Shown: positions 1,849 to 57,116 of the stretch, in pieces
How positions within the stretch are numbered: position 1 is the stretch's first letter
Layout: the number at the start of each line of letters is the position of its first letter
Assembly: GCF_004010195.1 (NCBI RefSeq)
Contig: NC_057749.1
Coordinates: 14,357,142 to 14,421,141 of the forward strand
Direction: 5' to 3'
Origin: Chiloscyllium plagiosum
Lineage: Eukaryota
Length of the DNA stretch: 64,000 nt
Notes under the pieces: model-generated
The model's database searches: none
Told to the model about the DNA's origin: nothing
What the model saw: only the letters and a program-made list of their open reading frames with translations
Made by a program: the position numbers and the translations under genes

Positions 1849-2037
1849 CAGCAGGTCAGGCAGCATCCAAGGAACAGGAGAATCGACGTTTCGGGCATAA
1901 GCCCTTCCTGAAGAAGGGCTTATGCCCAAAATGTCGATTCTCCTGTTCCTTGGATGCTGCCTGACCTGTTGTGCTTTTCCAGCAACACATTTTCAGCTCT
2001 GATCTCCAGCATCTGCAGACCTCACTTTCTCCTCAAA
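1849..2037. mobile_element. Palindromic hammerhead mini-element (family A) inserted in CR1
   Basis: Inverted arms meet at ~1905-1912. Core ctgaaga-agggc-ttat-gccc-aaaatgtc at 1908 has GAAAC decayed. atacagag is repeated at 1841-1848 and 2038-2045. Confidence 0.8.
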
Positions 2038-3001
2038 ATACAGAGGCATGGGATTGAGAGTGATTTAGTGGTTTGGATCAGAAGTTGATTAGCTGAAAAA
2101 AGACAGAGGGTGGTGGTTGGTTGGAAATGTTCATCCTGGAGTTCAGTTACCAGTGGTGTACTGCAAGGATCTGTTTTGGGGCCACTGCTGTTTGTCATTT
2201 TTATAAATGACCTGGATGAGGGCATAGAAGGATGGGTTAGTAAATTTGCAGATGAGACTAAGGTCGGTGGAGTTGTGGATAGTGTTAAAGGATGTTGCAG
2301 GTTACAGAGGGACATAGATAAGTTGCAGAGCTGGGCTGAGAGGTGGCAAATGGAGTTTAATGTGGAAAAGTGCAAGGTGATTCACTTTGGAGGGAGCAAC
2401 AGGAATAGAGAGTACTGGGCTAATGGTAAGATTCTTGGTAGTGGAGATGAGCAGAGAGATCTCGGTGTCCAGGTACATAGATCCCTGAAAGCTGCCACGC
2501 AGGTTAATAGGGTTGTTAAGAAGGCATATGGTGTGTTAGCTTTTATTGGTAGAGGGAATGAGTTTCAGAGCCAAAAGGTCATACTCCATCTGTACAAAAC
2601 TCTGGTGCAGCTATACTTGGAGTATTGCGTACAGTTCTGGTCACTGCATTATAGGAAGGATGTGGAAACTTTGCAAAGGGTTCAGAGGAGATTTACTAGG
2701 ATGTTGACTGGTATGGTGGGAAGGTCTTATGAGGAAAGGCTGAGGGAATTGAGGCTGTTTTCGTTAGAGAAAGGAAGGTTGAGAGGTGACTTAATTGAGA
2801 CATAAGATAAACAGAGGGTTAGATAGGGTGGACAGTAAGAGCCTTTTTCCCTCGGATAATGATGGCTAGCATGAGGAGACATAGCTTTAAATTGAGGAGT
2901 GATAGATATAGGACAGATGTCAGAGGTACTTTCTTTATTCAGAGAGTAGTAGGAGCGTGGAACGCACTGCCTGCAATAGTAGTAGACTCACCAACGTTAA
3001 G

Positions 3002-3137
3002 ATCAACTAGGAGAAAGTGAGGACTGCAGATGCAAGGAGGAGAGCTTCCTGAAGAAGGGCTTATGCCCGAAACATCGATTCTCCTACTCCTCGGATGCTG
3101 CCTGGCCTGCTGCGCTTTTCCAGCACCACACTTTTCA
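3002..3137 (+). mobile_element. Hammerhead mini-element (family A) with short inverted 5' piece, inserted in CR1 3' region
   Basis: 16-bp TSD actcaccaacgttaag at 2986-3001 and 3138-3153. ctgaaga-agggcttatgccc-gaaacatc-gattc starts at 3049. Confidence 0.85.
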
Positions 3138-4939
3138 ACTCACCAACGTTAAGGGCATTTAATTGGTCTTGGATAAACATATGGATGAAAATGGAATAGT
3201 GTACGATAGATGGGCTTCAGATTGGTTCCACAGGTCAGCGCAACATCAAAGACTGAAGGGCCTGTATTGTGCTGTCATCTTCTATGTTCTATGATGGAGG
3301 CTGGCTTTGAATTTCAGTTCCCACCCCTCCCACAAAAAAGCTAACCGAATTCAAATTCCATAGCTGCTGTGATGTGCCCTCTGGACTACTGAACTGATGA
3401 CATCAACACAATATTCCCCAAATATCCCAAGGCCTAACAATTTGCTTAGCCAGTTATCAATCTGTATAATCACAACATTTGTACTGTTCAGGAATTCAGT
3501 TACTCAGAATGCAAAATGCAGCTCAAAATGGTAGCATTCAATGGACAGAGAAATGAAGTATGAAATGAGTACAGTTGTTACAAAACAATTCACCATGGCA
3601 ACAATATCCTTTCAGAGAACATTAGATTGGTTTTTCAATGATTTCACAAAATTCTGTCTGTTTTCTTGCATTTATAAACTCATCCATGGTTACTAAATCC
3701 AAATGCACAATTTCCAAGCACTATAGAATATCTTAACTTACAGCTAAATAGATATGTTTGTATAATTTGTTTTGCAGACAGCATAATGAAAATGTGTTTT
3801 ATATCAAGTGCAGCAAGCATACTGCAATGTCAATAGCTCAACAGAAAACAAAGATATTTTGTAACGTATTAAAGCCAACAATTTTTACACAATGAAAAAG
3901 CTCATCATGTTCAACAATCATTGAAATTACCTACCACTAAAATCCCTCCAAGATGTGTAAGCAGAAATTGTTATCCAGATTGTTTACCCTTAGAAGCCTT
4001 TAATAAAAAGGGACTTATCCTTACAATAAATCCTGAATTAAATTTGGGTTTTTGAATAGACTCTGATAATAAGTCACATTGATCACTTCTGTTATTCCAC
4101 AGAATATGTATTAAAGGAAGAATGGTGAACTTTCAATTTGGTGTAACTGCTAGATTTTTACATCATTTTCAGCTATTTCAACAGCCTTCACATCATAGGC
4201 TGGTCACTTTCTATATAGCCAGTCATTTTAACGACACATATGAAATTTTTGAAAAACTGGCTCTCAATTTATTATAATCTGCAAATTCGATCGACTTGCA
4301 TTGAATCTCTTCCTTCAAATCACTGCTTAACATATTACAAAGGACTCAATTCTGCTCCTTTCGACATTACAAACAACTTCTCTCCAGGTACCAAGATCCA
4401 CTGGGAATCCAATCCAGTTAAGAGTTCCAGATAGAAGTCTAATTGCTGAGCTTGGTGAAAGGTTTCTTTAAAATCTAGGCACACTGTCATCAGGCTTTCT
4501 AAGCTTCACCCAGGTTAAAAACAAAGGAGACTGTTCATGCAGGATCCTTCCTTTTTCAGTCCATGTTAGCTACTATTTGCAAGGTACCAGATTATCAACT
4601 GCATTTACATGCTAATCTATTAGTAGTTTCTTAGTATTCTATTCTTAATCACTGGCAGTGCCCCACATTTATCCACTTCTCTCTTTATATTTCATGATAT
4701 TGTTATGAAGGTGTAGGTGTGTACTGTACCTTTAAGAGATAGTGAAAGCTGGGAAGGACTGACTGAAAGCACAGAGTGAGCTGAACAATTTAAAAATGGT
4801 TGTGAAACAAATAGCTGGAGATGAGTTGCCATGGTACACAACAAAATCGAATCCAGCCAATCAATTTAAATTATGCCTCAAGATAGCAAAATCCAATCGA
4901 ATTTGAATTTTAATGTTTTGAATGACATCAAACCAATGA

Positions 4940-5144
4940 TTTGGAGATGCCGGTGTTGGACTGGGGTGTACAAAGTTAAAAATCACATAACACCAGGTTA
5001 TAGTCCAACAGGTTTAATTGGAAGCACACTAGCTTTCGGAGCATCGCTCCTTCATTACCAACTGATGAAGGACCGCGCTCTGAAAGCTAGTGTGCTTCCA
5101 ATTAAACCTATTGGACTATAACCTGGTGTTGTGTGATTTTTAAT
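4940..5144. mobile_element. Palindromic hammerhead mini-element (family B, GAAAGCUA type) inserted in the solo LTR
   Basis: 14-bp TSD catcaaaccaatga at 4926-4939 and 5145-5158. Inverted arms ~4977-5055 and ~5064-5143. ctgatga-aggac..ctct-gaaagcta-gtg at 5062. Confidence 0.85.
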
Positions 5145-5350
5145 CATCAAACCAATGAGACAGTCTGACGTTTTGGGGTATATAAAATCAGATATTTTGA
5201 GCAGCAAAGAGCACCAAAAAAATACCAATTAAACCTATTGGACTATAACCTGGTGTTGTGTGATTTTTAACATCAAACCAATGAGACAGTCTGACGTTTT
5301 GGGGTATATAAAATCAGATATTTTGAGCAGCAAAGAGCACCAAAAAAATA
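5098..5350 (+). repeat. Near-perfect tandem duplication, ~127 bp x2
   Basis: 5098-5224 is repeated at 5225-5350 with about one indel, spanning the mini-element/LTR junction. Confidence 0.9.
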
Positions 5351-6991: not shown

Positions 6992-7672
6992 GGATATTGG
7001 GTGTATGGCTGAACAAAGAGACCTTTGACTGCAGGTTCAAAGTTTCTTGAAAGTGGAACTGCAGGTAGACAGGATAGTGAAGGTGGTGTATGCTTGCCTT
7101 TATTGGTCAGTACATTGAGTAAAGGAGTTGGAAAGTCATGTTGCGGCTAAGACATTGGTTAGGCCATTTTTGGAATACTGCATACAATTCTGGTCTCCTG
7201 CTATAGGAATTATGTTGTGAAACCTGAAAGGGTTCAGGAAAGATTTACAAGGATGTTGCCAAGGTTGGAGGGTTTGAACTATAGGGAGATGCTGAATAGG
7301 CTGGGGCTATTTTTCCTTGAGTGTCAGAAGTGGAGGGATGACCCTATAGCAGTTTATAAAATCATGAGGGGCATGGATAGGGTGAGGGCATGAGTTTAAT
7401 GTGAGAGGAGAAAGATTTAAAAAGGGTACCAAGGGGCAACCTTTTCACGCAGAGGGTGGTACATGCATGAAATGAGCTGTCAGAGGAAGTGGTGGAGCTG
7501 GTACAATTAGAACATTTAAAAGGCATCTGGATGGGTGTATGACTACTAAGGGTTCAGAGGGAAATGGGCCAAATGCTAGCAAATGGGACTAGATTAATTT
7601 AGGATATCTGATCAGCATGGAGAAGTTCAACCAAAGGTTCTGTTTCCATGCTGTACAGCTTGAGACATCTGT
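6992..7672 (+). mobile_element. CR1 LINE 3' fragment
   Basis: Close match to the 3' parts of the CR1 copies at 14640-15312 and 30300-30985. Confidence 0.9.
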
Positions 7673-8056: not shown

Positions 8057-9347
8057 GGCAAAGCAGCGTTTCAAGATCCTTGAATTTCACAGGACTTAGA
8101 AAAATGGCCAAGTGTATAAGATTCCACACATTTTGAAACTAATGGATCATGATAAAGGTTGCTGTTGCAGCATCAGGGAAAACATGAAAGTGGTCATCTG
8201 GACTCACGTTCACATAGGCATTACTATAGTGCAGTCAAATAAAGTTTGAGTATCACTTTATTGCTTTCCAAATGATTTGGAATAATGAATTGAGAATACA
8301 ATGTTGTGTTTTCTCCAAAGAGAAAAGAAAATTAAGAAAATGAAAAATTCAAAATGCCTCAAATTACACAAGAGACCAGGTAAAACAAAATCATTAAACA
8401 TTGCATATCCAAGCTCAGGAGCCTCTAAGCTGCTTAGATCAAAACTCAGATTGGCAACAATCGGTTATTACATTCTATTTTTAGTAAACTTAATATACTT
8501 ACTCTAAATTTTCTTACAGGAAAGTAGTTTCTTGTGGAGATCTTAAGTAATAAATCTATGGAGTGAAAATAGAGTTTTTAGTAAATACATTAAATTACAC
8601 AGTCACTAAAATTATTGAAATGATAGTGAACTCATTACATATTGTTAAAGGGAATTGTATGTATATTTGAGAGAAAAAGGATTGTTGGACTACAGGGAAA
8701 GTGCGTACGATTGGATTTGGATAGTCTTTCAGAAAGCTAGAGGCGTAATGGACACAATGGCCTCCTCCTTTATTATAACACTGTGCAATTCAATCTTATA
8801 ACACATTTCACCCAGATTCAATAAAGCCATTGTTCTACAATTCTTCCATCTCACCCATCTCTAGTGAATGTTTTGGTTACAGCGAGGCTTTAGCTTTACC
8901 AGTGTCAGTTATTATCCGATACTGTTCCTTTGGGAAGAGCTTTTTTTAAATGAATTTGTTCTTTGGTTTGGGTGATAGTATGGCTACATTTATTGCCAGT
9001 AATTGATAACACTTGTCTGCAAAACTGGTGGTCTGCCATCTTTTTGAATAATAAACGTGGCATTAACAGTAAAATTAATGTGGAGCTGGTCACATGTGGA
9101 CTCAACTAACTATCTCCTTCACTGAAGAACATTAATGATCCAGTTATATTTTGACAATAATTTGGCAATGTTTCTGCTCACCTTTTCTACTGCCAACCCA
9201 GAACCCTATCTAACTTATCAAATTCAGTTTTACAATGTTGTAATTTGGGTTCTAAATCTCTGCACATTGTGCTCATATAACACCATAAGTTCAAAAGGAG
9301 TCCAACCCTGCCCTGACTCAATGTCTATGAGTACATAGCCAATTACA

Positions 9348-10124: not shown

Positions 10125-10312
10125 AGCACCCGTGCAGGGAGAAACAGATTTAATGTTGAGTCCAGTGACCCTTCTTCACCATCGAGTCACTGGACTCAAG
10201 ACATTAACTCCATTTCTCTCTCCAGATATGTTGCCAAACCGCCTGAGTTTCTTCAGCAATTTCTATTTTTGTACGTTTTCGATCTCCATCATCTACAGTT
10301 GTGTGTTTATTT
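10125..10312. mobile_element. Decayed palindromic hammerhead-type mini-element (family D, gtcactggac stem)
   Basis: Inverted repeat ttaatgttgagtccagtgac..gtcactggactcaagacattaa. Related to 19110-19205; catalytic core degraded. Confidence 0.55.
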
Positions 10313-11636: not shown

Positions 11637-11674
11637 GATTCCTGATGAAGGGCTTTTGCCCGAAACGTCGAATC
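11637..11674 (+). ncRNA. Minimal type I hammerhead ribozyme motif, best-preserved copy
   Basis: GAUUC-CUGAUGA-A-GGGC-UUUU-GCCC-GAAA-CG-UC-GAAUC. Stem I gattc/gaatc, intact core, 4-bp stem II, loopless palindromic stem III (ACGU). Predicted cleavage after C11669. Confidence 0.8.
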
Positions 11675-11767
11675 TCCTGCTCCTCAGATGCTGCCTGACC
11701 CCGCTGTGCTTTTCCAGCACCACACTCTCAACTCTGATCTCCAGCAATTGCAGTCCTCACTTTCGTC
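11637..11767 (+). mobile_element. Single-arm hammerhead mini-element (family A)
   Basis: Hammerhead followed by the ~95-nt tail (gatgctgcctgacc..gcttttccagcaccacac..ctctgatctccagc..tgcagtcctcactttc) shared with the copies at 1849, 3002, 28157, 36224 and 51213. Confidence 0.85.
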
Positions 11768-14273: not shown

Positions 14274-14634
14274 CTTTCTGACATCATCATCCTTGGCCTC
14301 CTCCTTTGCGACAACAAATCAAACCGCACATTTAAGGAACAACACCTCATCTTCTGCCTGAGCAGACTCTAACTGCCCAAAGGACTCCATTTTGGGAAAG
14401 CAAATCTTAACAGGACTTTATAACTTGATAGTAAGGTCCTGGGAGTATTACTTTTAGTAATACTCCCAGGACCTTACTATCAAGTTATAAAGTCCTGTTA
14501 AGATTTGCTTTCCCAAAATGGAGTCCTTTGGGCAGTTAGAGTCTGCTCAGGCAGAAGATGAGGTGTTGTTCCTTAAATGTGCGGTTTGATTTGTTGTCGC
14601 AAAGGAGAAGGCCAAGGATGATGATGTCAGAAAG
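14274..14634. repeat. Near-perfect inverted duplication (179-bp arms, 3-nt spacer)
   Basis: 14274-14452 is the reverse complement of 14456-14634; one mismatch noticed by eye. Confidence 0.95.
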
Positions 14635-18575: not shown

Positions 18576-19109
18576 TGAACTCTACTTCAAAATCTCTAAA
18601 TTATTTGGATTTCTCATAAATTTATTAACTACAATAAAAAAGTTATCCTGGAACCTCAGGAAAATAGACTATGCTGAAACTTTCATTTCCATACAAACTA
18701 ATAGTGTGCAGGAGTTGAAGATGCATGGTGAACAATGAAGATGCATATCTTTGTCACACAGTACTGGTGAATATAGGTAATATTTTGATTTTTTTTAATT
18801 TAGCCGTCAAAAGTTCACTATGTATTATTTTTGAAAATTGATAGAACTGTGACCTGTTCCAGCTTCAAAAAGACAATAACTCATTTTCATGGAGCTGTTG
18901 TCATTTAAAAATTGCAGGCACTAGCAATTTTCACAGTGCAGGTGGCAAGTCCCTTCTCTGCACTCCCAAACTGGTCACTCAATTTCAGAGATAGACATTT
19001 GAAATTTTCATGGAGTTGAGCCAGTATTTCAATGACACATGCTTCACAGCCTTTCAGCGGAGTGTGACCATAAAATGGATTGGGAAGCTAATCAAGGTCT
19101 TACCAATGA

Positions 19110-19205
19110 AACAAAAACATTGTTGGAAAAGCTCAGCATGTCTGGCAGTCTATGTGGAGAGAAATCAGAGTAAACATTTTAGATCCAGTGACCCTTCCTC
19201 AGGAC
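19110..19205 (-). mobile_element. Decayed hammerhead mini-element (family D)
   Basis: Minus strand reads cctgagga-agggtcactggatct-aaaatgtt-tactctg.. followed by a ctgagcttttcca tail. CUGAGGA is intact, GAAAC is decayed. Confidence 0.6.
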
Positions 19206-20739
19206 AATTAGCAACAAACTCTCCTTTTCCTCCATCATCCTTCCACGTCACTCATCCAGCATTGGCTATGTACAAAACCGATGGCCATATAATAACAAAG
19301 AGAACTGTTGAAAGCTGAAGAAGAAAATCAAAGGGCTGAAAGACATACATTGGTGGGGCCCTTTCTATCAAAGAGTTTGCCAGGCTGGGAAAATTCTTGA
19401 CTTGACCAGCCACCTCAGTAACAAAAACATAACCTTTTAAATTTTACATGTTCACAGGAATCCATTTATCTTAAAGGTTTTTTTTTTAACCCCTGTGGGC
19501 AATGACACATATAAAGAAAAGAAAACATTGTGCAGAAGTCACAAACGTTTATTTCCATTTAGTTAGTTTTTGGATTACTGCTCAGAAAGTTGTCACCTAA
19601 AAGCCTGCATTCACTTCCACAATTCCATTTGATGTTCAAATTGCAAAAGAAAACTGTACTGGTCTTTTCACTTATACAGCAGTGTCCGACTTCTATTTTC
19701 TTGTTAATAACCCAAAAGGAAAAGAAAGTGGTCCTTGCACCTTAAAAACTATTATGCCCCACAAATAACCCAAATCTAAAGGAAGGATTCACACAGCTGC
19801 TGGTGTGCCACCGCTTAATATAAGTAGGCTACATATTACAAGTTAATAATGCTCAGCTTACTGTCCTTCCCTTGTGGGCAACTGTGACTTGTGGGCAAAA
19901 GAATAATCATACATGCACAAGTTTCTGTCCTGTCATAGGTACTATGTGATATTCCCTCAATCTAAATCAGACCATTTTCTCACCACCTCAAGTTCTAGTA
20001 TATGCAATCTCAAAAACAATTCTGAAACTCAAATTCAATATTCATGGTAAATATCATTAAAATAATCATGTTGAAATTACAAAGCACCTGCCTAGCCAGG
20101 TATCGTATATATTAGCGAACTAAACAACTACTGTGCAATAACCCTGTAGTAATTTTGAGTGTGATTAATCTTCAAAATATATGCAACTGAAATTGCTTCA
20201 AATTCCTGGAATTTCAGTACAGGGTACTCTGTTCTTCGCATGTGCATTCAGAATTAACTGATTTTCAAGCTTCACAACCTGTTGATTTTCAGTAATTTAT
20301 TTATAAAGTACATATTGGTTTTTATTTGTTTGATCAGCATTATGATATTAGACAACTATCCATGGTCAATTCTAAAGATTAAATGAAAAGTAATCATTTT
20401 TCTTTCTGTAGGATGAATCCAAATTGAAAAACCCCAAACACAACAAAATTACTTTTTAGAGATGATTATCTTTGTAGCAGGTGATCTCAGAATAGTTAGT
20501 ATTCTAGACACCATCACGAGGTACATGGGTGTTGACTTGCTGACATTGACTTCTCAGATATTTCTGGAAGTTTATTGCCAAGTCCAGTCAGATGGTTAAG
20601 CATCAACAAGATGGCTGCCAAGTTTGTTGACTGATTGTCTAAATTTGTTTTTAAAATTTGGTTTGGGACAAGAAAGTATCTGTAATGAGTATGAATAGAT
20701 TTATCATATTTGATGATTTGGTCCAAATATAGATGATAT

Positions 20740-21052
20740 TCAAAGTTTGGGAGAAGATTTGTCGCTCGGGTGCTCGTTGTTGTGGTTCTGTTCACCGAGC
20801 TGGAAGTTTTTGTTGCAAACGTTTCGTCCCCTGTCTAGGTGCTTGGGAGCCTCCTGTGAAGCGCTTCTGTAGTGTTTCCTCCGGCATTTATGTTTATGCT
20901 GCTGTGAAGCGGCAGGGACAGGCCACTATAAATGCCGGAGGAAACACCACCGAAGCGCTTCACAGGAGGCTCCCAAGGACTGAGGATGTCACCTAGACAG
21001 GGGACGAAACGTTTGCAACAAAAATTTCCAGCTCGGCGAACAGAACCACAAC
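20740..21052. mobile_element. Palindromic hammerhead mini-element (family C)
   Basis: 11-bp TSD atagatgatat at 20729-20739 and 21053-21063. Inverted arms ~20778-20891 and ~20928-21053. Confidence 0.9.
20977..21016 (+). ncRNA. Minimal type I hammerhead motif
   Basis: gga-CUGAGGA-U-GUCACC-uagaca-GGGGAC-GAAA-CG-UU-ugc. Core is present with a palindromic ACGU stem III; stem I has one mismatch and GUU is a non-optimal cleavage triplet. Confidence 0.6.
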
Positions 21053-21480
21053 ATAGATGATATATTTAAGTGTGTAGATATCTTAAATTCTCTCTACCAC
21101 GTTTGATTTTATAAACCTAGTTTATTTAATGTGCAGTAATGCAGGGTTAAATGCTTAATTTATTATTCCATACACAAAACACAGCAAAAAGTAGAGATGA
21201 TTAATAGCTTTCAGATTTATAGAAGCAAAAGCACTAATCGAGTAGTGTTTACCTACTAGAAAGAGAACATTTCAGCACCTTCCTTCTCTAGAGTTTAACC
21301 AATGCAACTGTAATGAATCCATATAGGCTCACAGCATTTTCCAAATAAAAATGCAATCTTCATTATTTATGATTTTTTAAAAGGTTTTCTCCCCTCCTAT
21401 CCTTACCGGTTGTTGTAGTCCTTACAAATTCAGGCTCAGAAACAGAGGAAGTGGAGGAGATACACTCCATTGTTTAAAAA

Positions 21481-26709: not shown

Positions 26710-29700
26710 GTATCTCTAGACGGAGGGCGTCTAGGAAAACAAACAGCGAAACTCACAACTGATCTTGGAGGAACCTGTCTGAGAGAGCTCACTGCATAGG
26801 AACAGATAAGTGCTTCGTTTTTAACGTGTAACCTTGCTGTAAGACTACAGTAGTGAGTACACTGGGGTCTTTCTTGATTATATACTTTAGTGAAATCTGA
26901 CTCTTGATTAAATTTTAAAAATATAAACCATAAGTATGAAGTTAGCTTGAAGCACAGCTGCTCATAGAGCAAAATTACGGTGCTGTTTTCTGCGTCTGTA
27001 GATTGTGAAGGAACAAAGATGGCCTTCAGTAGAGCAATATACTCTTCTGGTCGATGTGGGAGTTCAGGGAGAGCTTATGTGTTGCTGAGGATTATATTTG
27101 CAGCTGGTGTGTATGGTTGCAAATCCTATCAGACCGAATGGATCAGTTAGAGCGACTATTAGAGGCAATGAGGAATTTACAAGAGCCTGGCTGTGATGGA
27201 TGGCAGTTATAGGAAGGGAGATAAGTCACAGATACAGGAAAGGAAGGAGAAGTGGGCAGGTAGCGCAGGGGTCTTCTGTGGCTATCCCCATTGAAACAAG
27301 TATGCTGTTTTGGAAAATGGAGGGGGTGATGGACTCTCAGGAGAATGTAGCACGAGCAGCCATGTTTCTGCTACCGAGAATGGCTCTAATGTAATGAGGG
27401 GTATGTCCGGTTCCGAGCAATCGATTGTGATAGAGGGCTCTACTCAGATGCACAAACAGACGTTTCTGCGGCCAGCAGGGAAATATCAGAATGGTGTGTT
27501 GTTTCCCTGGTGCCAGGATCAAGGATGTCTCAGAGAGGGTACAGAAGGTTCTCAAAGGGGAGAGCAACCAGCAGGAGGTAATTATATGCATTGGAACCAA
27601 TGATATTCGAAGGGAAAAGGATGAGATTCTGAAGGGAGAATATAGAGAGTTAGGCAGGAATTTAAAAAGGAGTTCCTCGAGGGTAGTAATATCTGGATTA
27701 CTCCCGGTGCTACAAGCTACTGAGGATAGGAACTGGAAGATAGAGCAGATGAATGCATGGCTTAGGAGCTGGTGCATGGGAGAAGGGTTCACATATTTGG
27801 ATCATTGGAATCTCCATTGGGGTGGAAGTGACCTGTACAAGAAGGATGGATTGCACCTGAATTGGAACGGGACTAATATACTGATTGGGAGATTTGCTAG
27901 AGTGGCTCGGGAGGATTTAAACTAATAAGGTTTTGGGGTGGGGATGGCACCCAGGCGATAGTGAGGAAAGAGATCAATCTGAGATTGGTACAGTTGGGAA
28001 AGGGTATGAGCCAAACAGTCAGGGCAGGCAGGGACAAAGCAGAGAACAAGGTAGGACCGATAAATTAAACTGCATTGACTTCAATGCAAGAGGCCTAACA
28101 GGGAAGGTAGATGAACTCAGGGCATGGTTAGGAACATGAGACTGGGATATCATAGCGTCGAGTGTGTGGTGCTGGAAAAGCACAGTAGGTCAGGCAGCAT
28201 CCGAGAAGCAGGACAGTCAACATTTCGGGCAAAAGCCCTTCATCAGGAATGCAGGATATCATAGCAATTACAGAAATGTGGCTCAGGGATGGACAGAACT
28301 GGCAGCTTAATGTTCCTGGATACAAATGCTTCAGGAAGGTAAGAAAGGGGGTCAAGAGAGGGGGTAGGAAATGGAATTTTTGATAAGGGATAGCATTACT
28401 GCTGTACTTAGAGAGGATATTCCTGGGAATACATGCAGAGAAGTTATTTGGGTGGAACTGAGAAATAAGAAAGGATGATCACCTTATTGGGATTGTATTA
28501 TAGACCTCCAAATAGTCAGCAGGAAATTGAGAAACAAATTTGTAAGGAGATTTCAGTTATCTGTAAGAATAATAGTGTGGTTACCTTTCTATACAAAGAC
28601 TGGGACTGCCGTAGTGTTAAGGGTTTAGATGGAGAAGAATTTGTTAAGTGTGTACAAGACAAATTTTCTGATTCAGTATGTGGACGTACCTACTAGAGAA
28701 GGTGCAAAACATGACCTATTCTTCGGAAATAAGACAGCGCAGGTGACTGAGGTGTCAGTGGGGGAGCACTTTGGGGCCAGTGGCCATAATTCTATTAGTT
28801 TTAAAATAGTGATGGAAAAAGATAGACTGGATCTAACAGTTCAAGTTCTAAATTCGAGGAAGGCTATTTTGACAATATTAGGCAATAACTTTCAAAAGCT
28901 GACTGGGGCAGATGTTCACAGGTAAAGGGATGGCTGGAAAATGGGAAGTCTCCAGAAATGAGATAATGAGAATCCAGAGAAAGTATATTCCTGTTAGGGT
29001 GAAAGGAAAGGCTGGTAGGTATAGGGAATGCTGGATGACTAAAGAAATTGAGGGTTTGGTTAAGAAAAAGAAGGAAGCATATGTCAAGTATAGACAGGAT
29101 AGATCAAGTGAATCCTTAGAAGAGTATAAATGCAGTAGGAGTGTACTTAAGAGGGAACTCAAGAGGGCAAAAAGGGGACATGAGGTAGATTTGGCAAATA
29201 AGGTTAAGGAGAATCCAAAGAGTTTTTATAAATATATTAAGGACAAAAGGGTAACTACGGAGAGAATAGGGCCCCCCAAAAGATCAGCAAGGCAGCCTAA
29301 TGTGTGGAGCTGTGTGAGATGAGGGAGATACTAATAGAGTATTTTGCATCAGTGTTTACTGTGGAGAAGGACATGGAAGATATAGAATGTGGGGAAATAG
29401 ATAGTGACACCTTGAAAAATGTCCATATTACAGAGGAGGAAGTGCTGGATGTCTTGAAACGCATAAAGGTGGATAAATCCCCAGGACCTCATCAGGTGTA
29501 CCCTAGAAATCTGTAGGAAGCTAGAGAAGTGATTGCTGGATCCCATGCTCAGATATTTGTATCATCGATAGTCACAGGTGAGGTGCCGGAAGACTGGAGG
29601 TTGGCTAACATGATGCCACTATTTACGAAAGGTGGTAAGGAAAACCAGGGAACTATAGATCGGTAAGCCTGACATCAGTGGTGGACAAGTTGTTGAAGGA

Positions 29701-31748: not shown

Positions 31749-31790
31749 TTTTGTGAAAAATACCAGGAATTGTAATGACAGTTATCTTCA

Positions 31791-36223: not shown

Positions 36224-36543
36224 AAAATGTGCTGCTGGAGAAGCGCAGCAGGTAAAAACAATGACTGCAGATGCTGAAAACCAGATTCTAGATTAGAGTG
36301 GTGCTGGAGAAGCACAGCAGGTCAGGCAGCATCCGAGGAACAGGAGAGTCAACCTGAATGCCCCCCACTCGAAGGTACGAGCCTTATTGTTATATGCAAA
36401 TGCCAAGGCTGTCAAGATATTTGAAGTACACAACTTAACCTTCTTAAGATTTGCTCCTCGGATGCTGCCTGACCTGCTGTGCTTTTCCAGCACCACACTT
36501 TTTGACTCTGATCTCCAGTACCTGCAGTCCTCACTTTCTTCCA
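36224..36543. mobile_element. Family A mini-element with inverted arms enclosing captured local DNA
   Basis: 15-bp TSD gcttcttctgatcaa at 36209-36223 and 36544-36558. The central 36351-36455 is an inverted, diverged copy of 35911-36012. Confidence 0.85.
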
Positions 36544-41140: not shown

Positions 41141-41402
41141 CAGGTTTGTTACAATTTTCTCTCAAAATGTTTATGCTGGCTCCTCCCAACTAACCCACAT
41201 TTTTTCATGTGATTATTAATTCTATCCCAAATGTTGACTTCACCAATTTCCTTATCCCATCGCCTCTTCCCCCCAACCTTATCCTGGATCCAACCGTCCA
41301 ATTCAGCACTGCCCTTTCTGTCCATCTTGCTTTCCATCTATCCACTCCATCCTACCGTCTGACCTATCACCATCAGCCCCCACCTGCATCCACCTATCAC
41401 CT

Positions 41403-41502
41403 ACGGCTTCACTTGGAGGTCGCCACTGATGATGTTACCTAGCCAGGTAATGAAATGTCTGGATATCAAACCTACAGCTCAGCGAGCAAACCCACACCCT
41501 AT
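41403..41502 (+). mobile_element. Single-arm hammerhead mini-element (family C) nested in the PLE remnant
   Basis: 11-bp TSD acctatcacct at 41392-41402 and 41503-41513. Homologous to the PLE end at 56215-56310. Confidence 0.8.
41423..41462 (+). ncRNA. Minimal type I hammerhead motif
   Basis: CCA-CUGAUGA-U-GUUACC-uagcca-GGUAAU-GAAA-UG-UC-UGG. Stem I cca/tgg, 6-bp stem II, GUC triplet. Confidence 0.7.
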
Positions 41503-43471
41503 ACCTATCACCTTTCCAGCTACCTCACCCCCTACCTCCAGCCTCCTATTTATCTCTCAGCCCACTTCCCCCCCTCGCCCCCAAACATTCCTGATGAAGG
41601 GCTCATACCCGAAACAAAGATACTTCTCCATCATTGATTGTTGTAATTGCATAAATTGATTGTTGTAATTGCATTTTATTCAACCGCAATATTTCACATT
41701 TGATAACACAGCTAACATACTTGACTTCAGGTTGTAAACTGCAATGAAGTTTAGAAATATTACTGGTACTTATCATTGACATGGAAAGTTTATCTAATGA
41801 GCAGCTGACCCATTTCTATCCAGTGAAGTCCCAATATTCTATCTAAAGCAAGCATTATCAAGAAATGCTGTAATTGACATCAATTTCCTTTCATTAGAGA
41901 AGGAAAAGAAGCAACAGTATGCTGATACTTGGTTGAAAATTTTGCAAGTGCATAAATATAAACATTGAGTATGATCAGATTAACTTAGCAATCTGACAAT
42001 CAAATAATTTTTAAAAAAAAGGTTAGAGCCTTTACTGATTTTTCACTACTTCTAGATTTTATTCTTTCATCAATTTTGGTTTGGAGCAGTGAACTGGGAA
42101 CTGTGAGCTAAATATGACTTTTGAACTGTGGCTAATAGCTTGTGTTAAAAGGGGGAAAAAAAACAAACAAGGTTTTGCTTATTTGACAGACTAAGTCTGG
42201 AAGTTAATTGCAGGTTGGTTTGTGAATCAAAATGCTCTGTAGATGCTTCATCTCCAGGGAACAGCATTATGCTTGAACAGAGAACAGCGGATGGCTATTA
42301 ACAGAACTGATTCCAGTAAGTCTAAAAAAGACGGTTTTCTCAAGAAGGCAGCAGATTTTGAATAGTAAGTGAGAGCTCATGGAAGAGACAGTTAGCCTGT
42401 CAGAGAGGAGCCAGAGTTGGAACTGGTTTTGAAAACGTTTTTTTGTGAAAAAAATACATCTGGCTGTTGGTGCATGAAGATTAGAAAGCTTCTGCCTAAC
42501 CTCCCTTGAGCAATTCTTAGTATTCTATTCTCTAAACTTCCAAGTTTAAGTATTACTATGCTTCTCGGAGTAAATTAAAAAGGTGAGCCAGATCAACATC
42601 TTCAGAAAATCAACCAAAAAACCCCATCGGTGTCTGTGGAACACACATCATGGCAACTACTTAAGTAGTCTGGCCAGTTTTGTTGGTTTTTGTTTTATCC
42701 CTTAACTGTGATTACTTGTCTGTCTGTCCATTCTGTGACCAGAGCGGAAAGATTTTGGGTTTATAGCATAGATCAATTAGGTTGCTTTGTTGTTTCATTT
42801 TTGCTCTGCTAAAGATACTATATCATTAATAAATTGCAAAGTGCTTTGTTTAAGGTACAAGCCAATGTACGGTATTGATTATTCAAAGAGTCTAGATTCG
42901 GCTATTGCAAAGTTTTGTTAGGAACCACTGGGGTCAGTTTTGAGGGCCTTTGAAAGTTTAGTTTTAGCATTTTGTGAATACATAGGTTGAAAGGCTGATT
43001 TGGTTCAGCTGTCTATCTCTATGTCATAACTGACTCATTTCGGTTAAGTACAAGAGAGCACCCAGATTCACAACAAACAAAAAGTCACAGGGAGAGAACA
43101 TTTATTTTAGAAGGGAAGTAATAAAGTCAAATATTTATTGATTTAAATTTTACATGTTCGAAGTCCAAAACTCACTCTCAAAAAAAAATCAGATATTTTG
43201 TGCAACAATTCAAATTGATCTCCAGTTAAATAAAATTCAGATTTGCCCAAATTTCAATACAATTCAGTTAGTCACTAGTTCTTCATGTTCATCGAGCTGA
43301 GTTACTGCCCTCAGTCAATCTGAATGATGCATGGCCCACCCAATCTGTCAAGCAACTTAGTGCTTTTAGTGCATCTGTATTATTTCCATGTCTTATGTCA
43401 TTACAATCATGTCAGGAAGGCCAACTGACAACTTCATGGGCAACAGTGTGAAAAGGATGCATATGATGTTG

Positions 43472-49620: not shown

Positions 49621-50199
49621 GAAAAGAGAGATGGCAGGCAGATTGATATTTTGAGGAATTGTCTCTTTTTGAGGGCAAAGGGTAAGGTAAGAAACCTCCT
49701 GGTTTCATTTTCCATTTTACTTTCTCAATGAGCTGAACCCTGTCAGTGTTTTGAAGATTCAAAATTCAAACTCAAATTAAAATTAATCCCTCCACTAACA
49801 GCAGACTGTAAAAGCAAGAGGTCAAGGTCATTGTAAAACATTTGAACCTCCTCTTATAAATGTAAGAATGAAGAAAATTTAACTACCAACGAATCCAATC
49901 ATCAGCAATTTTCAGGTGAGAATGTAAGGTGAAATAATGTGGGTTGACTAAGTCGCACTCCACTAATTACAAATTACAGTCTTGAAAATGCCCCCTTAAT
50001 CCCAACTCTTCTTGTAAGGCAATCCTCTATCCATGCTAATATCCTATCTCCAACAGCATGGACTCTTATTTTGTTAAACAGCCTAATATGTGAAAACTGA
50101 ATCTTATGACCAGCACAAGAATGAAGTTACAACGTTGTCCTGGGTTACTTCTTCACCAGGAAGAAAAGAAGGTATCATAACGGACATACGTTTTTTTAC

Positions 50200-50779
50200 A
50201 TTAGATTCCCTAGTGTGGAAACAAGCCCTTCGGCCCAACTAGTCCACACCGACCCTCCGAAGAGTAATCTACCCAGACCCATTTCCGTCTGACTACTGCA
50301 CCTACCACTATGGACAATTTAGCATGGCCAATTCACCTGGCCTGCACATTTTTGGACTGTGGGAAGAAACCAGAAAACCCAGAGAAATCCCACGCAGACA
50401 CGGGTGAATGTGCAAATTCCACACAGACAGTCACTCAAGGTTGGAATCAAACCTGGGACTCTGGTGTGTGAGGCAGCAGTACTAACCACTGAGCCACCGT
50501 ACCACCCCAAGAGTAACTCGCCCAGACCCATTCCCCTCCCCTACATTTACCCCAGACCAATGCACCTAACCTACACATTCCTGAACACTATTGGCAATTT
50601 AGCATGACCAAGTCAATTAACCTGCACAACTTTGGACTGTGGGAGGAAACCAGAGTACCCAGAGAGGAAACCCACACAGACACATGGAGAATATCTGTGT
50701 GGAGTTTGCACAGTCGCCTGAGGCTGGAATTGAACCCAGGTCTCTGGTGCTGTTAGGCAGCAGTGCTAACCACTGAGCC
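50200..50779 (-). mobile_element. Two tandem HE1-like V-SINE copies (50200-50507 and 50508-50779)
   Basis: Two head-to-tail minus-strand copies, each ending in aaccactgagcc. The second has a short internal inversion (tctgtgtggagtttgca at ~50694-50710). Confidence 0.9.
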
Positions 50780-51212
50780 TTCTAGGTTTCATGGGAGTTA
50801 AATTTGCAGATAAATATTGGGAGCACCAAAAAAAAAGTTCCAAGAAAAAAAAATTACTTCCAAGCAGTATTCATAGCATATGGGATAATTGACATACCAG
50901 AAAATGAAGAACTTAATGTTAACAAATTGATGGGATTGTTTAAATACAGGTCATGAACAACAGGTACTAAAAGAGAACTGTAACAAATAGAAATAAGGGC
51001 CAAAATGCTGTTGGAAATTGTGAACAAAGAAAATGTGGGATTTGGAATAAGCAAATAAACCACAGAAAATGCTCCAGGTGTAATCATTGATGTTTCAGGT
51101 GTGATTCAAAATATCACTACACCATGAATTCTCTCAAACACTATAATAAGGCATTTGAAATCAAACATGAAAGAAGATTCAGAGCAAGATAGCAATACAG
51201 ATTAAAGAGAGT

Positions 51213-51416
51213 TGAAAATGTGTTGCTGGAAAAGCGCAGCAGGTCAGGCAGCATCCAAGGAGCAGGAGAATCGACGTTTCGGGCATGAGCCCTTCTTCAG
51301 GCTCATGCCCGAAACGTTGATTCTTCTGCTCCTTGGATGCTGCCTGACCTGCTGTGCTTTTCCAGCAACACATTTTCAGCTCTGATCTCCAACATCTGCA
51401 GTCCTCACTTTCTCCT
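51213..51416. mobile_element. Palindromic hammerhead mini-element (family A)
   Basis: 14-bp TSD agattaaagagagt at 51199-51212 and 51417-51430. Arms meet at ~51300. Minus strand has an intact CTGAAGA-AGGGC-TCAT-GCCC-GAAACGTC (51300-51273). Confidence 0.9.
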
Positions 51417-53256
51417 AGATTAAAGAGAGTGCATTGTAATGATCACAAGAAATTTCAGCCCAGTGATGAAAGTATTGATGGGCAGAGTCTTTCAGTTCTG
51501 CAGTATTACACATTAGACACATGTCTATTATGTATAGAAAAGGCCAATTAAAATGCTACCGAGACTAAGTAAAAAGGATCAAGATATAGTTAGGAAATCG
51601 ATATTCTACCAGCTTCAGATTTAGAGTTGATAAAATACTAAAATATTTGAAAAATAGTATTGTAAATTAACTGGATTTAATCATTTTATTAGCATGAATG
51701 TGGTGTCTCATGAATATCTCTGTTATTAAGTAGAAAGCAGTAATCAAACTCTTTATGGAAAATGGCAATGCTATTGTAGTTGAAAGATCAGTGAATGTGC
51801 AAATTAGAAAACTGGGATTCTATTCTTTTCCTTTAATGAAAAACAACCTCTCAATTAAAGCTATTGACATCAGTAGTAGAAATTTATTCGGTAAACCTCC
51901 ATTGTGTAAAAACTACAAAGGCAATTTGCTCATCTATCTTCTAAACATTTAAAATTTCAATAAAGAATGCACAAACAAGGGTTGAGGAGTACAATAAATC
52001 ACAGAAGTAACAGATGTTAGATCTGCAAGAAATACTGAAGGACACCACCAGTCGATAATAAATCTACACTTATCAAGAGATTTCAATGAGGTAGTGGCCT
52101 TAAAGGGGATTTAGAGTTTTAGGATAATCTAAGTATTCTAATTTTGCATTTTGTAGATTGACAAAATCTGGTTGTCAAATCAAGAAAATTGGGGATAAGG
52201 CAATAATAGAAGTGGAAAGGGTTTGGACTTGGATCACTGGCAAATTTTTCATCAATAATTTGAGGGGAGTTTGTTAGTAAGAATACGAACACAACAGTTA
52301 TAAATACAGAGGCAGAAAGCCCTTTTCAGCAATAGGGTACGTGAAAGCAACCAGGCCATAGTAGATGAAATTATTGACAACATTTTGGTACATCAGCCAA
52401 ACTGTAAGTTATCATCTGCATTAGTGTGAGCTGTACATGCTAAGAATTTGTTGAGGAAGATGGGATGACGCCCATATCAGTCATAAGTGACAGCCCCTAC
52501 TTCAGGAAGGGATAACAATTAGTTTTGCTTTTTTTTTTGGAGCATTTGAATGCATTGCATCCTGGCGGAACTTTCATTAAAGTTGAAATCTCAGGATTCA
52601 GTGAATCTAAGCTTTAAGATAAAACCATTGGAAACAGTTTCAATCTGGTTTATCATAGGAGAGAGAGGCTTAAAGAATACAATGTCCCAAGGAAGGTTAT
52701 GAGTAAAGATGAAAACAAATAATAGTCACAGCATTAGAATTACCCTATTCTGGTACACTCTTCCTTAATGCATATGGGTTACAAATTTGCAGATTCTGAA
52801 GAATTTGTTATTGAAAATAGTTGAGGAGCCAGATATTTCTCATAACCACATATTGGATAGCTACAAGGATTAAACTGTCACAATTGACAGCTTGTCTGAT
52901 GATGGACAACAGCGTTCTGATGGTCAATAGGAAGTTATTAGTGCCAAAGGATAACTGCCAAAAGTGTGTGAGAAGACGGAGTAGCTCAATTCTGGCACTC
53001 TCTGCAAGCTGCACTAAGTTGGCTGCCTTCATACTCCCATATGGTCTCAGTCACTTTAATAAGGATCCAGATTCTGCTAATTCTTCAATAAGCTGCTCAA
53101 ACACTAACTGTTGGAAAAACCCTTGCTTAAGGCTAACATTATAGAAATTAAAGTGTAGGCTTCAGTTGTGTGCAAAGTACAATCTCAATTAGGTTTGTAA
53201 AAATAAAAATTTCATCGTTCTTCACCAATGAATGTATGTACTCAGTCCTAAGTAAA

Positions 53257-53610
53257 GGGCAGCACAGTGGCTCAGTGGTTAGCACTGCTGTCTCACAGGA
53301 CCAGAGACCCAGGTTTGATTCCAGCCTCAGGCTGTATGGAGTTTGCACATTCTCCCCATGTCTGCAAGGGTTTCCTCCAAATGCTCCGGTTTCCTCCCAC
53401 AGTTCAAAGATGTGCAGGTTAGGTGAATTGGCCATGCTAAATTGCCCATAGTGTCCAGGGATGTGTAGGTTAGGTGCATTAGTCAGGGGTAAATATAGAG
53501 TAATAGGATAGGGGAATGGGTCTAGTGAGATACACAACAGGGGGTCAGTGTGGAATTGTTGGGCCAAATGGCCTGTTTCCAGAGTGTAGGGATTCTAGAA
53601 TGATTCTAAG
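53257..53610 (+). mobile_element. HE1-like V-SINE
   Basis: A/B boxes, V-domain and ggcctgtttcc..gtagggattct tail. Confidence 0.9.
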
Positions 53611-54300: not shown

Positions 54301-54627
54301 TGGCACGGTGGCCCAGTGGTTAGCACTGCTGCCTCACAGCGCCTGTAGACCTGGGTTCAATTCCCGACTCAGGCGACTGACTGTGTGGAGTTTGCACATT
54401 CTCCCCGTGTCTGCGTGGGTTTCCTCCGGGTGCTCCGGTTTCCTCCCACAGTCCAAAGATGTGCGGGTCAGGTGAATTGGCCATGCTAAATTGCCCGTAG
54501 TGTTAGGTTAAAGGGGTGGATGTAGGGGTATGGGTGGGTTGCGCTTCGGCGGGTCGGTGTGGACTTGTTGGGCCGAAGGGCCTGTTTCCACACTGTAAGT
54601 AATCTAATCTAATCTAATCTAATCTAA
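54301..54627 (+). mobile_element. HE1-like V-SINE, young (CpG-rich)
   Basis: A/B boxes, V-domain, retained CpGs and an (aatct)n tail. Confidence 0.95.
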
Positions 54628-54949
54628 ACAAAATTTAATACTCAAATGAAACATAAATCTGTCCAGATGTATTTAAAACTTCACACAGTTAGTATTACAC
54701 TTCTTGAAACATCCATCTTGCATTAATTTTCAAGAGATTCGATAATGGAAGAAATAATAGCACTATAAACTGGTGAATAGGTGAACACAGACTATTTTTA
54801 TGTACAAAATTCACAAGTACAAAATGGATTTGTCATACCAAGAGGAAATATCATTAACATTTAAATTCATATTAATTAAGTACAGATTTAAAAGACTCAT
54901 TCAGTTTGACCTATTATTTCCATTATAGATATGAAATAATTATTTCCTA

Positions 54950-56348
54950 GATCTAAGTTTGCTTGCTGAGCTGGAAAGTTCAGTTTCAGATGTTTTGTCA
55001 TCATATTAGGTAACACATCAGTGAGCCTCCAGATGAAACATTGGTGGTATGGCCCGTGTTTAGGTTTCCTTGGGTTGGTGATGCCATTTCATGTTCTTTT
55101 TCTCAGGGGGTGCTAAACGGGATCCAAGTCAATGTGTTTGTTGATAGAATGCCATGCTTCTAGGAATTTTCATGCGTGTCTCTGTTTGGCTTGTCCTAGG
55201 ATGGATGTGTTGTCCCAGTCAAAGTGGTGTCCTCCCTCATCTGTAAGTAAAGATATTAGTAAGAGTGGATCATGTCTTTTTGTGGCTAGTTGATGTTCAT
55301 GTATCCTGGTGGCTAGTTTTCTGCCTGTTTGTCACCGTTCCTGCAAGGTATTCTGTAAATGACATTAGTTTTGCTTGTCTGTACAGGGTCCTTCAAGTTC
55401 ATTAGCTGCTGTTTTAGTGTGTTGATGGGTTTGTGGCCTACCATGATGCCAAGAGATCGGAGTCGTCTGGCAGTCATTTCTGAGATATCTTTGATGTAGA
55501 GGAGAGTGGCTAGGGTTTCTGGACGTGTTTTGTCTGCTGGTTTTGGTTTGTTGCTGAGAAATCAGCAGACTGTGTTCATTGGGTATCCATTCTTTTTGAA
55601 AACACTGTACAGGTGTATGCAAGAACGGGTATTCAATGAACACAGTCTGCCGATTTCTCAGCAACAAACCCAAACAAGCAGACAAAACACGTCCAGAAAC
55701 CCTAGTCACTCTCCCCTACATCAAAGACATCTTGGGAAATTCTGCCAGACTACTCAAATCTCTTGGCATCATGGCAGGCCACAAACCCATCAACACACTA
55801 AAGCCGCAGCTAATGAACATGAAGGACCCTATACAGACAACAAGGAAAACTAATGTCATTTCCAAAATACCTTGCAAGAATTGGAACAAACACTGCATTG
55901 GACAAACAGGCAGAAAACTAGCCACCAGGATACATGAACATCAAGTAGCCACAAAAAGACATTACCCACTCTCACTAGTATCTTTACATATAGATGAGGA
56001 AGGACACCACTTCGACTGGGACAACACATCCATCCGACGACAAGCCAAAACGGAGACACGCACAAGAATTCCTAGAAGCATGGCATTCCAACCTGAACTC
56101 TATCAACAAACACATTGACTCAGATCCCATTTACCACACCCTGAGAAAAAGAACAGGAAATGGCATCACCAACCCAAGGAAACCTACACACAAATAAAAA
56201 GTGGGTCATACCACCAGTGCTTCATCCAGAGGCTCACTGATGATGTCACCTGGTATGGTGACAAAACATCTGAAACCAAACCTTCCAGCTCAGCAAGCAA
56301 ACCTACTTCCAGAACCTCAACCTGAGCTACGAATCTTCTCAAAACTCG
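54950..56348. mobile_element. Penelope-like element 3' ends in inverted arrangement (GIY-YIG endonuclease + pLTR)
   Basis: ORF 55636-56118 TLPYIKD..NVISKIPCKNWNKHCIGQTGRKLATRIHEH..GHHFDWDNTSI is a decayed PLE GIY-YIG. ~54950-55590 is the reverse complement of ~55625-56325. Decayed hammerheads at 56234-56273 (+) and 54986-55024 (-). Confidence 0.92.
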
Positions 56349-56895
56349 ATAAATATTTCCATTAAACTAAAAGAAATTTCATATCACTGTTCCTGCTCTA
56401 AATTTAACAGAGGAAAGATAGCGGCAATCTTGTTAATCAGCAGGACAGTTGGTAACACTGATCATTTCCATGATATGAGACTAAGAAACCCGATGGGCAA
56501 AACTGTTGGCTGACAACTGGTCCTGGTTTACTTCAAACTAAACACTTACCATGTCAGCCGCCTCAACAACCAGCCACCCAACCCAAAAGGAAATATGCCT
56601 TTGCTTAAAGAACTACAAAAAATATTGATTAGAGGCTGCATAATTTTTTTAAAAAGTGTGGAAATGCTCATCCATTTTGATCAAGGAAATCAATCTCTCC
56701 CCCACACACATCCTCACCCCCCCCCCCCCTCCTCCAATGGACAAAACAGTTCAGCATTCATCCACTGGTGTTGCTTGAAATAATTTAAGAGCTGGAATAT
56801 TAGCAGGCTCTTTATCTGACGTCAATGTCCATGTATTTCCAACAGGAATCACTGGGTAGCAGTATGAACTGGGAACCTAGCTCAATTTATACTCA

Positions 56896-57116
56896 AGGTT
56901 TGTGTAAAGATTTTTAGCTCGGATGCCGGTTGCCGAGGTTGTGGGTATGTTTGCCAAGCTGGAAGTTGATTTGCAGACACTTCATCGCCATGTCTAGATG
57001 ACATCTTCAGTGCTTTGAAGCCTCCTGTGAAGCACTGCTGTACAGTGTCTTCTGGAATTTATCTCTGAAATAAATGCAAATCAACTTCCCAGCTCAACAA
57101 ACATACCCACAACCCC
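56896..57116 (-). mobile_element. Decayed hammerhead mini-element (family C) with a short inverted arm
   Basis: Homologous to 20740-21052. Minus strand reads gca-CTGAAGA-TGTCATC-tagaca-tggcgat-gaagtgtc-tgc. Confidence 0.7.

Follow-up and report, generated by a model that had tools for sequence, protein, structure and literature searches.

Hammerhead-bearing insertions in a 64-kb stretch of the Chiloscyllium plagiosum genome as probable 3'-terminal products of Penelope-like elements

The 64,000-nt stretch of the Chiloscyllium plagiosum genome analysed here (contig NC_057749.1, positions 14,357,142 to 14,421,141; hereafter the window) carries short insertions with hammerhead ribozyme motifs, which are very probably ordinary products of endonuclease-bearing Penelope-like elements (PLEs) of at least four families (A to D), with no separate parasite resembling a short interspersed nuclear element (SINE). 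The unit inserted is the 3'-terminal module of a PLE, composed of a minimal hammerhead, 60–95 nt, and an optional tail of 30–38 nt. We favour this reading because longer copies with endonuclease coding sequence end in the identical module, and because the insertions show variable target duplications, a second inverted arm in about half of the family-A and family-B cases and a one-sided tail. The kind of element has been known since 2014, and it is the copy number that is unusually high here.

Exact motifs were counted over the 3.56-Gb assembly (reversed-pattern controls were all 0), and ribozyme-bearing PLE 3' ends number at least 100,000 in this genome:

Family A core, 25 nt with 3 free positions: 93,328 exact matches
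Family A tail-side 32-mer: 121,971 exact matches
Family B 30-mer: 30,571 exact matches
Family C 34-mer: 7,231 exact matches
Family D 20-nt core: 5,385 exact matches

These counts bear out two claims of an earlier reading made from the sequence alone (the sequence-only reading), namely that at least four families with different stems II share the core and that the copy number is very high, and they show the extent of PLE 3'-end proliferation in a vertebrate, with at least 120,000 exact matches for one family. Family D is old, since just 31 of its cores in the genome keep both CpGs of ..GACUCGAAACGU.

The modules of families A, B and C (hammerhead ribozyme, HHR, and tail), to which the links with coding sequence apply, are the 3' terminus of copies with PLE endonuclease coding sequence upstream. 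Among the family-A copies first inspected, 5 of 15 continue upstream into a conserved C-rich sequence, and at locus L009 this stretch is preceded by a degraded frame (..FTCTSTHIIYCIRCTRCGLLY, a frameshift, then TGRLLAERFREHLWD...LGTLQPQGMNSDF), the core at 9781 lying ~170 nt past the stop of the frame and ~220 nt past the conserved endonuclease part. A second, neighbouring family-A copy reads ..PGTFPCHRRNYKTC..IIYCIRCSRCSLLYIGETG..RFREHL, and the GIY..YIG motif was read in two family-A copies; the Pfam GIY-YIG match on the second copy is weak (19.5 bits, cut-off 22.6). The closest named protein, from bamboo shark and 87% identical, has RVT_1 followed by GIY-YIG (21.7 bits), both below the Pfam cut-offs, and a 63%-identical named protein carries GIY-YIG above the cut-off (23.4 bits). 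A 104-aa endonuclease piece gave 112,475 first-look candidates in the genome, and all 150 of the 150 that were scored had E<=3e-54. In family C, where 12 of 18 sampled insertions are long, the open reading frame (ORF; ..AREFLEAWH..NSINKHIDLDPIY..) enters the hammerhead and has its stop codon in loop II; in family B the frame ends ~350 nt upstream of the core and resembles the family-A stretch just before the GIY-YIG motif.

Two candidates for a more complete element were rejected. One, taken for a full-length PLE on account of its 987-aa 'open frame', the longest seen, owes that openness to the 2,504 of 4,201 positions that read N, and an RVT_1 match at L009:4803-5645, considered as the PLE reverse transcriptase (RT), had no established link to a PLE copy and may belong to a long interspersed nuclear element (LINE).

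The motifs of the four families, as read, were as follows:

Family A: CUGA[A/U]GA-A-GGGC-NNNN-GCCC-GAA-ACGU-C
Family B: CUGAUGA-A-GGAGC-GUC-GCUCC-GAA-AGCU-A
Family C: CUGA[U/G]GA-U-GUC.CC-loop-GG.GAC-GAA-ACGU-U
Family D: CUGA[A/G]GA-A-GGGUC-ACUG-GACUC-GAA-ACGU-U

The catalytic boxes CUGANGA and GAAA stand in type-I order, there is no helix III hairpin, and positions 15.2/16.2 are palindromic (ACGU in A, C and D; AGCU in B). The sequence of stem II differs among the four families and its pairing, judged by reading copies and comparing sequences, is kept in all of them; family C offers compensated stems within the window (GUCACC/GGUGAC at 56237 and GUUACC/GGUAAU at 41426), and among the family-C loci the commonest stem II has one G.G or A.G mismatch. 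A strict minimal-hammerhead descriptor (CUGANGA, bulge of 0–1, stem II of 4 bp or more without mismatch and with a closing G-C, GAAA, complementary 15.2/16.2, U-H) found two intact cores in the window (11642, plus strand; 51300, minus strand) vs 0 in 200 first-order Markov simulations. The family-A 25-mer core matched seven times at up to 3 mismatches vs 0 in 100 shuffles, and the loose CUGANGA..GAAA pattern 16 times vs 6.1 +/- 2.4 expected. Minimum free energy folds recover stem II in families A and B and give no hammerhead fold, and the predicted cofold of two family-A segments is -24.1 vs 2 x -8.2 kcal/mol. Judged by their sequence, the window motifs are minimal type-I hammerheads of the PLE kind, as the sequence-only reading had proposed, with cleavage as a prediction.

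Window repeats were assigned to families by BLAST against longer genomic copies and by reading, and all 12 places singled out in the sequence-only reading proved to be repeats of families A to D: family A at 1849, 3002, 11637, 28157, 36224 and 51213, with a further core at 41591; family B at 4940; family C at 20740, 41403 and 56896; and family D at 10125 and 19110. Beyond these 12 there are a family-B fragment (5225-5271) and family-C fragments (56011-56303). ARAGORN found no tRNA-like head, in agreement with that reading. Exact flanking duplications, given there as 11–16 bp for most insertions, stand at 8 of the 12 places and measure 8–16 nt (8 at 1849, 16 at 3002, 14 at 4940, 11 at 20740, 12 at 28157, 15 at 36224, 11 at 41403 and 14 at 51213), and at 10125, 11637, 19110 and 56896 a duplication was sought and none was found. 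A core or a decayed form of it is present everywhere except at 36224, but only the two cores named above are intact, the remainder being decayed by at least one change, mostly at CpG. The individual copies are:

1849..2032, plus strand: family A, two-armed (head-to-head), inside a CR1/L2-like LINE ORF; inverted arm 1849-1907, forward arm 1905-2032 with the 34-nt tail; core at 1908 decayed (GAAA>AAAA, CG>TG); exact 8-nt duplication, ATACAGAG, at 1841 and 2038
3002..3137, plus strand: family A, inverted tail copy 3010-3032 joined to a tailless forward arm 3046-3137; core at 3049 altered only at 16.2 (G>A); 16-nt duplication at 2986 and 3138
4940..5144, plus strand: family B, two-armed, both cores decayed; inverted arm 4937-5055 with a ~38-nt tail, forward arm 5059-5143 tailless; 14-nt duplication at 4926 and 5145
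5225..5271, plus strand: family B, 3' fragment within a local duplication of the preceding insertion's flank
10125..10275, plus strand: family D, old two-armed copy, both CpG sites of the core decayed; no duplication found
11638..11764, plus strand: family A, short and simple, beginning 4 nt ahead of CUGA and complete to the tail end; core at 11642 an intact minimal hammerhead, one of two in the window; no duplication found
19096..19215, minus strand: family D, single decayed arm
20740..21053, plus strand: family C, two-armed, core at 20980; inverted arm 20740-20891 with a ~30-nt tail, forward arm 20906-21053 tailless; junction of the arms 45-75 nt before the core; 11-nt duplication at 20729 and 21053
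28157..28253, minus strand: family A, short and simple, 5' end 5-7 nt ahead of CUGA, no tail; core at 28246 decayed; 12-nt duplication at 28145 and 28254
36224..36543, plus strand: family A, two arms (inverted 36263-36347, forward 36452-36539) with ~100 nt of unrelated sequence between them, no hammerhead core; 15-nt duplication at 36209 and 36544
41340..41616, plus strand: family A, long copy with the PLE C-rich 3' untranslated region (UTR) and a core at 41591, without the part after GAAAC
41403..41502, plus strand: family C, ~100-nt 5'-truncated copy nested in the family-A copy 41340..41616; core at 41426, its stem II (GUUACC/GGUAAU) compensated and paired throughout; 11-nt duplication at 41392 and 41503
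51213..51416, minus strand: family A, two-armed; minus-strand arm 51208-51301 with an intact hammerhead (51300) and no tail, plus-strand arm 51300-51415 beginning inside stem II and with the tail; junction compatible with fold-back priming on 2 nt; 14-nt duplication at 51199 and 51417
56011-56303, plus strand: further family-C fragments
56892..57116, minus strand: family C-like, old decayed two-armed copy; no duplication found

The LINE ORF that hosts the first of these spans 1700-2900 of the window, and at 5145-5290 the right flank of the family-B insertion is tandemly duplicated together with the last ~47 nt of the element.

The architecture of family A was followed in 27 independent insertions, sampled through a tail-side anchor that is independent of the 5' end, aligned to a long copy and then read individually at their flanks, with coordinates counted from the C of CUGA; in subfamily A2, whose upstream sequence differs, the 5' ends were placed by flank reading and not by the stop of the alignment. 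The sample comprised 13 two-armed (head-to-head), 6 short simple and 8 long insertions, the last extending 25 to >770 nt upstream with ends spread over hundreds of nucleotides. The 3' ends fall into two classes, +85..+97 and +120..+124, that is, without or with the 34-nt tail. Among simple copies the tail was present in 5, absent in 7 and not placed in 2, and in the two-armed insertions it stood on exactly one arm in all 13, an outcome with a probability of ~1e-4 if the arms had chosen independently at 5/12. The one-sided tail recurs in families B and C, both in the window (4940, 20740) and at genomic loci. In 10 of the 13 two-armed family-A insertions the outer ends coincide with the two RT start sites. 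Nine of the 19 family-B insertions sampled were two-armed, and among the first 100 family-B matches listed, pairs within 500 nt were oriented -/+ in 14 cases, +/- in none and +/+ in one; the family-A matches listed comprised five head-to-head pairs and one head-to-tail pair (168 nt). Truncation, inverted arm, one-sided tail and duplications together uphold the earlier proposal that a PLE-type mechanism inserted these copies.

The 5' ends of family A are concentrated at the edge of the hammerhead. In 17 of the 27 insertions (6 simple and 11 two-armed) the longest arm ends at -8..+9, and in 4 of the 6 short simple copies an adjacent duplication fixes the 5' end at about -1 to -8. The 37 hammerhead-bearing arms divide into 13 long, 16 in two-armed insertions and 8 short, and the long fraction agrees with the genome-wide figure of 31%: a PLE 3'-UTR 8-mer lies upstream of 18,074 of the 58,987 intact CUGAAGA-type cores (30.6%), a lower bound, since an intact 8-mer was required. 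The smooth truncation continuous with PLEs that the sequence-only reading had set against its own proposal was thus found in part, in that the short copies are continuous with long PLE copies but their family-A 5' ends pile up at the hammerhead edge. In family B the corresponding class is smaller (3 of 19 start near -9), and in family C, sampled in 18 insertions, short copies of the family-A type number 0/18 and the arms meet 45-75 nt upstream of the core. These distributions suggest, as far as copy ends can indicate, that many family-A template RNAs share a discrete 5' end shortly ahead of the hammerhead. The TCATTCC at this edge resembles what we take to be an initiator (Inr) element; a stop imposed by structure or by protein is an alternative account of the edge.

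The junctions between arms point to events at that same end. In two-armed family-A insertions one arm typically reaches -2..-5 and the other starts at +1, +5, +12, +24, +36 or +46, with 2-3 nt of microhomology at the junction. The junction of the copy at 51213 (..TTCTTCAGG|CTCATGCCC) is the product expected if a cDNA that had stopped at -2 paired back on GCCC and served as its own template. One head-to-head junction 35-mer recurs exactly at 737 sites in the genome; a two-armed master that is being re-copied could explain such identical junctions, and repeated de novo formation fits better, given the 10 of 13 insertions whose outer ends coincide with RT start sites. At L003/L013 (contig C1, ~29,000-29,400) a chimeric insertion couples position -1 of a short family-A unit with 145 nt of sense-oriented, LINE-like coding RNA, a single 14-nt duplication enclosing both parts; its sequence is suggestive of template jumping at the 5' end of an RNA, and the chimera resembles the template-switch chimeras of other retroelements. 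Two short family-A copies (L028, L035) have direct duplications of 8-11 nt of hammerhead sequence just before the 5' end, which suggests extra template switches there.

These observations can be accommodated in a single scheme of PLE insertion, derived in part from the biochemistry of Frangieh et al. (2024). The RT-endonuclease would nick the target and start cDNA at either of two internal RNA sites (~+90 or +124 in family A), the choice of start site giving copies without or with the tail, and synthesis would then proceed towards the 5' end. In family A most cDNAs would stop a few nucleotides from the 5' edge of the hammerhead, corresponding to a discrete RNA 5' end that may be a start site at the Inr-like TCATTC or may arise through RT initiation in a leader module copy of a tandem transcript. 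Once there, the cDNA could join the target, giving a short simple copy; fold back on 2-3 nt of microhomology and copy itself, giving a two-armed copy; or jump to another RNA, giving a chimera. The hammerhead, a predicted ribozyme, would be a passenger of the module. Integration of PLEs is poorly understood, and it is constrained by the 5'-edge ends in about two-thirds of family-A copies, the single tail in 13 of 13, the junction at 737 sites and family C without a pile-up.

Raw RNA evidence came from polyA single-cell reads (run X7) mapped to L009:9000-10000. Read depth was ~3-37 per 34-nt bin per direction upstream vs 170-490 over the hammerhead-to-tail module, and over the endonuclease-coding part (L009 9204-9475) there was a 3-9-fold strand bias. 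The pattern fits passive co-transcription of many copies together with some strand-specific PLE transcription.

Several points weigh against the view that the insertions are ordinary PLE products. Pfam gave no match in four endonuclease fragments, and no full-length PLE with an RT domain was read, one sampled copy being N over 2,504 of 4,201 bases and N runs beginning shortly upstream of the module in seven others (L001, L005, L033, L041, L063, L065 and L085). The link to RT comes from the related named protein with its sub-threshold Pfam matches, because the RT stretch of this genome reads N. Family D, covered genome-wide through motif counts, was linked to no ORF. The family-A pile-up of 5' ends is not predicted by plain random truncation. 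In the X7 reads the two orientations of the module are within ~2.5-fold of each other, and no pile-up of starts or ends was seen at -4, at the predicted cleavage site or at any other place along the mapped stretch, in a polyA library that cannot decide cleavage or start sites. Finally, the Rfam hammerhead models, a check that the sequence-only reading had proposed, gave no match in the window at gathering score or at E<=10; these models include helix III, which the present motifs lack.

A variant of the PLE reading, which we regard as possible though doubtful, would make the hammerhead-to-tail module of family A, and partly of family B, a template in its own right: its RNA would start a few nucleotides before the hammerhead, for instance at the Inr-like TCATTC in the terminal repeat, tandem transcripts would hold the RT-start module twice, and initiation in the leader would yield a solo module of ~95-130 nt as the commonest product (about two-thirds of copies). 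If so, PLEs would make SINE-like progeny by design with no separate parasite, and the one-tail rule and the recurrent fold-back junctions would read out how the two-strand PLE intermediate resolves.

An actual SINE-like system, in which non-autonomous units of ~100-260 bp with their own transcription and their own lineages would use the PLE RT and endonuclease in trans, was the proposal of the sequence-only reading and is improbable. It would account for the discrete 5' end in about two-thirds of family-A copies, for the small share of intact family-A cores that continue upstream (30.6% only) and for the very high copy number; the unit matches, moreover, the minimal RNA needed in vitro by the anole PLE protein, and the literature, as far as the accessible parts of it go, has non-autonomous PLE derivatives elsewhere. 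However, the modules of families A, B and C form the 3' terminus of copies with PLE endonuclease coding sequence, and in a tree built from positions 0 to +88 of 35 family-A arms (two unalignable arms excluded) short, two-armed and long copies interleave, the state 'long' requiring 8 changes for 12 rows against a shuffled mean of 10.2, with 47 of 500 shuffles as low. The loop variants TTAT/TCAT/TAAT are likewise shared (68/21/11 in long copies vs 73/16/11 in all copies, 100 each, among the matches listed), and the identical 5' boundary occurs in at least two family-A subfamilies. A unit that starts at its own start site would be without an upstream promoter, and there is no tRNA-like head; judged by that result, by the tree and by the loop variants, the units do not fit a SINE, which would have its own internal promoter or a head derived from tRNA, 5S or 7SL, and a lineage apart from the autonomous partner. 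The short class is 0/18 in family C, and the two orientations are about equal in the RNA reads. The tempting reading as a ribozyme-SINE system is thereby removed.

Still less likely is that the copies are non-LTR retrozymes, tandem hammerhead repeats that self-cleave at two sites, are circularised and spread through circular RNA. This vertebrate does combine PLEs with short non-coding units that bear hammerheads, a 2026 preprint (Li, Clavereau & Pollet) ties vertebrate retrozymes to PLE terminal repeats and, in the part available, lists one cartilaginous fish, and the axolotl is given, in the portion of the paper seen, up to 120,000 hammerheads in retrozyme repeats (Cervera & de la Pena 2020, PMC7229834). 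The copies, however, are dispersed singly or head-to-head and not head-to-tail, as the listed pairs given above testify (1 +/+ vs 14 -/+ in family B, one head-to-tail vs five head-to-head in family A), and no head-to-tail arrays were found in the window. The hammerhead is the minimal variant without helix III and loop-loop contacts, and copies end at -4 and +90/+124, away from the predicted cleavage site at +28/+29. Foldback DNA transposons or miniature inverted-repeat transposable elements (MITEs), which the long hairpins of two-armed copies, their sub-threshold matches to microRNA (miRNA) models and the flanking duplications might recall, can practically be dismissed, since in 13 of 13 cases the tail sets two unequal arms apart, one-armed copies are equally common, the duplications vary from 8 to 16 nt and in sequence the insertions correspond to the 3' termini of copies that encode a PLE endonuclease. 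Neither symmetrical termini nor a matching DNA transposase was seen.

The window holds other repeats and hairpins. A near-perfect hairpin of ~220 nt (14344-14564), which on either strand matches miRNA-precursor models below their thresholds, is possibly a foldback repeat or a MITE with no relation to the PLE copies, and a second long hairpin (~164 nt, 55526-55689) has a sub-threshold miRNA-model match. A ~450-bp repeat unrelated to the hammerhead module occurs at least seven times (7384-7657, 9347-9798, 14862-15312, 30538-30977, 38344-38803, 39681-40123 and 63749-64000) and is 77-85% alike to a copy nested in L077; a ~320-bp repeat occurs at least six times (16658-16850, 31427-31749, 43473-43779, 50196-50507, 53256-53454 and 54302-54627) and is 80-95% alike to an L077 stretch.

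A literature search, mostly outside subscription journals, returned no paper on hammerheads in shark PLEs, and the comparison with known systems draws on accounts from other organisms, each of which was available in part. Animal non-LTR retrozymes are short non-coding hammerhead units related to PLE terminal repeats, arranged head-to-tail in tandem, mostly with canonical type-I hammerheads, and they form circular RNA (Cervera & de la Pena 2020, PMC7229834; Li, Clavereau & Pollet 2026 preprint). The present insertions share with them the short non-coding units, the relation to PLE terminal repeats and the dispersal of 'monomer' (solo) copies, but are single or head-to-head and carry minimal hammerheads.

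According to Craig et al. (2021, PMC8557442), endonuclease-bearing (EN+) PLEs insert as heavily 5'-truncated copies, accompanied by a neighbouring copy that is likewise 5'-truncated but inverted, and a tail of 30-40 bp is often confined to one end. The anole PLE protein cuts and extends both DNA strands, and its RT starts at two internal sites, the tail being the interval between them; the RNA required runs from the hammerhead region to ~170 nt downstream, and hammerhead cleavage is protein-assisted and dispensable for insertion in vitro (Frangieh et al. 2024, PMC11167929). Truncation, the inverted copy, the tail at one end and variable duplications are found likewise here. The ORF of the anole element begins at stem II, whereas in the present families it ends before the hammerhead (A, B) or has a stop codon that the hammerhead overlaps (C), and the sharp pile-up of 5' ends and the strict one-tail rule (13 of 13) do not appear in the available parts of those two accounts.

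The closest precedent is the description of minimal hammerheads in metazoan PLE terminal repeats by Cervera & de la Pena (2014, PMC4209133), which, in the part available, gives the boxes CUGANGA and GAAA, G10.1-C11.1, no helix III, ACGU or AGCU as the palindromic 15.2/16.2 pair, a short helix I (3-4 bp) and several families per genome whose stems II differ yet remain paired. Most copies there are single and 'probably related to truncated PLEs', with some opposite-strand pairs 100-700 bp apart. Notwithstanding the available text of that account naming no cartilaginous fish, the boxes, G10.1-C11.1, the lack of helix III, the palindromic pair, the short helix I, the stem-II families, the truncated single copies and the opposite-strand pairs all have their counterparts here, and the difference is one of scale: ~9,000 motifs in Xenopus and 4,000 in coelacanth, against 93,328 exact matches to the family-A core in this genome.

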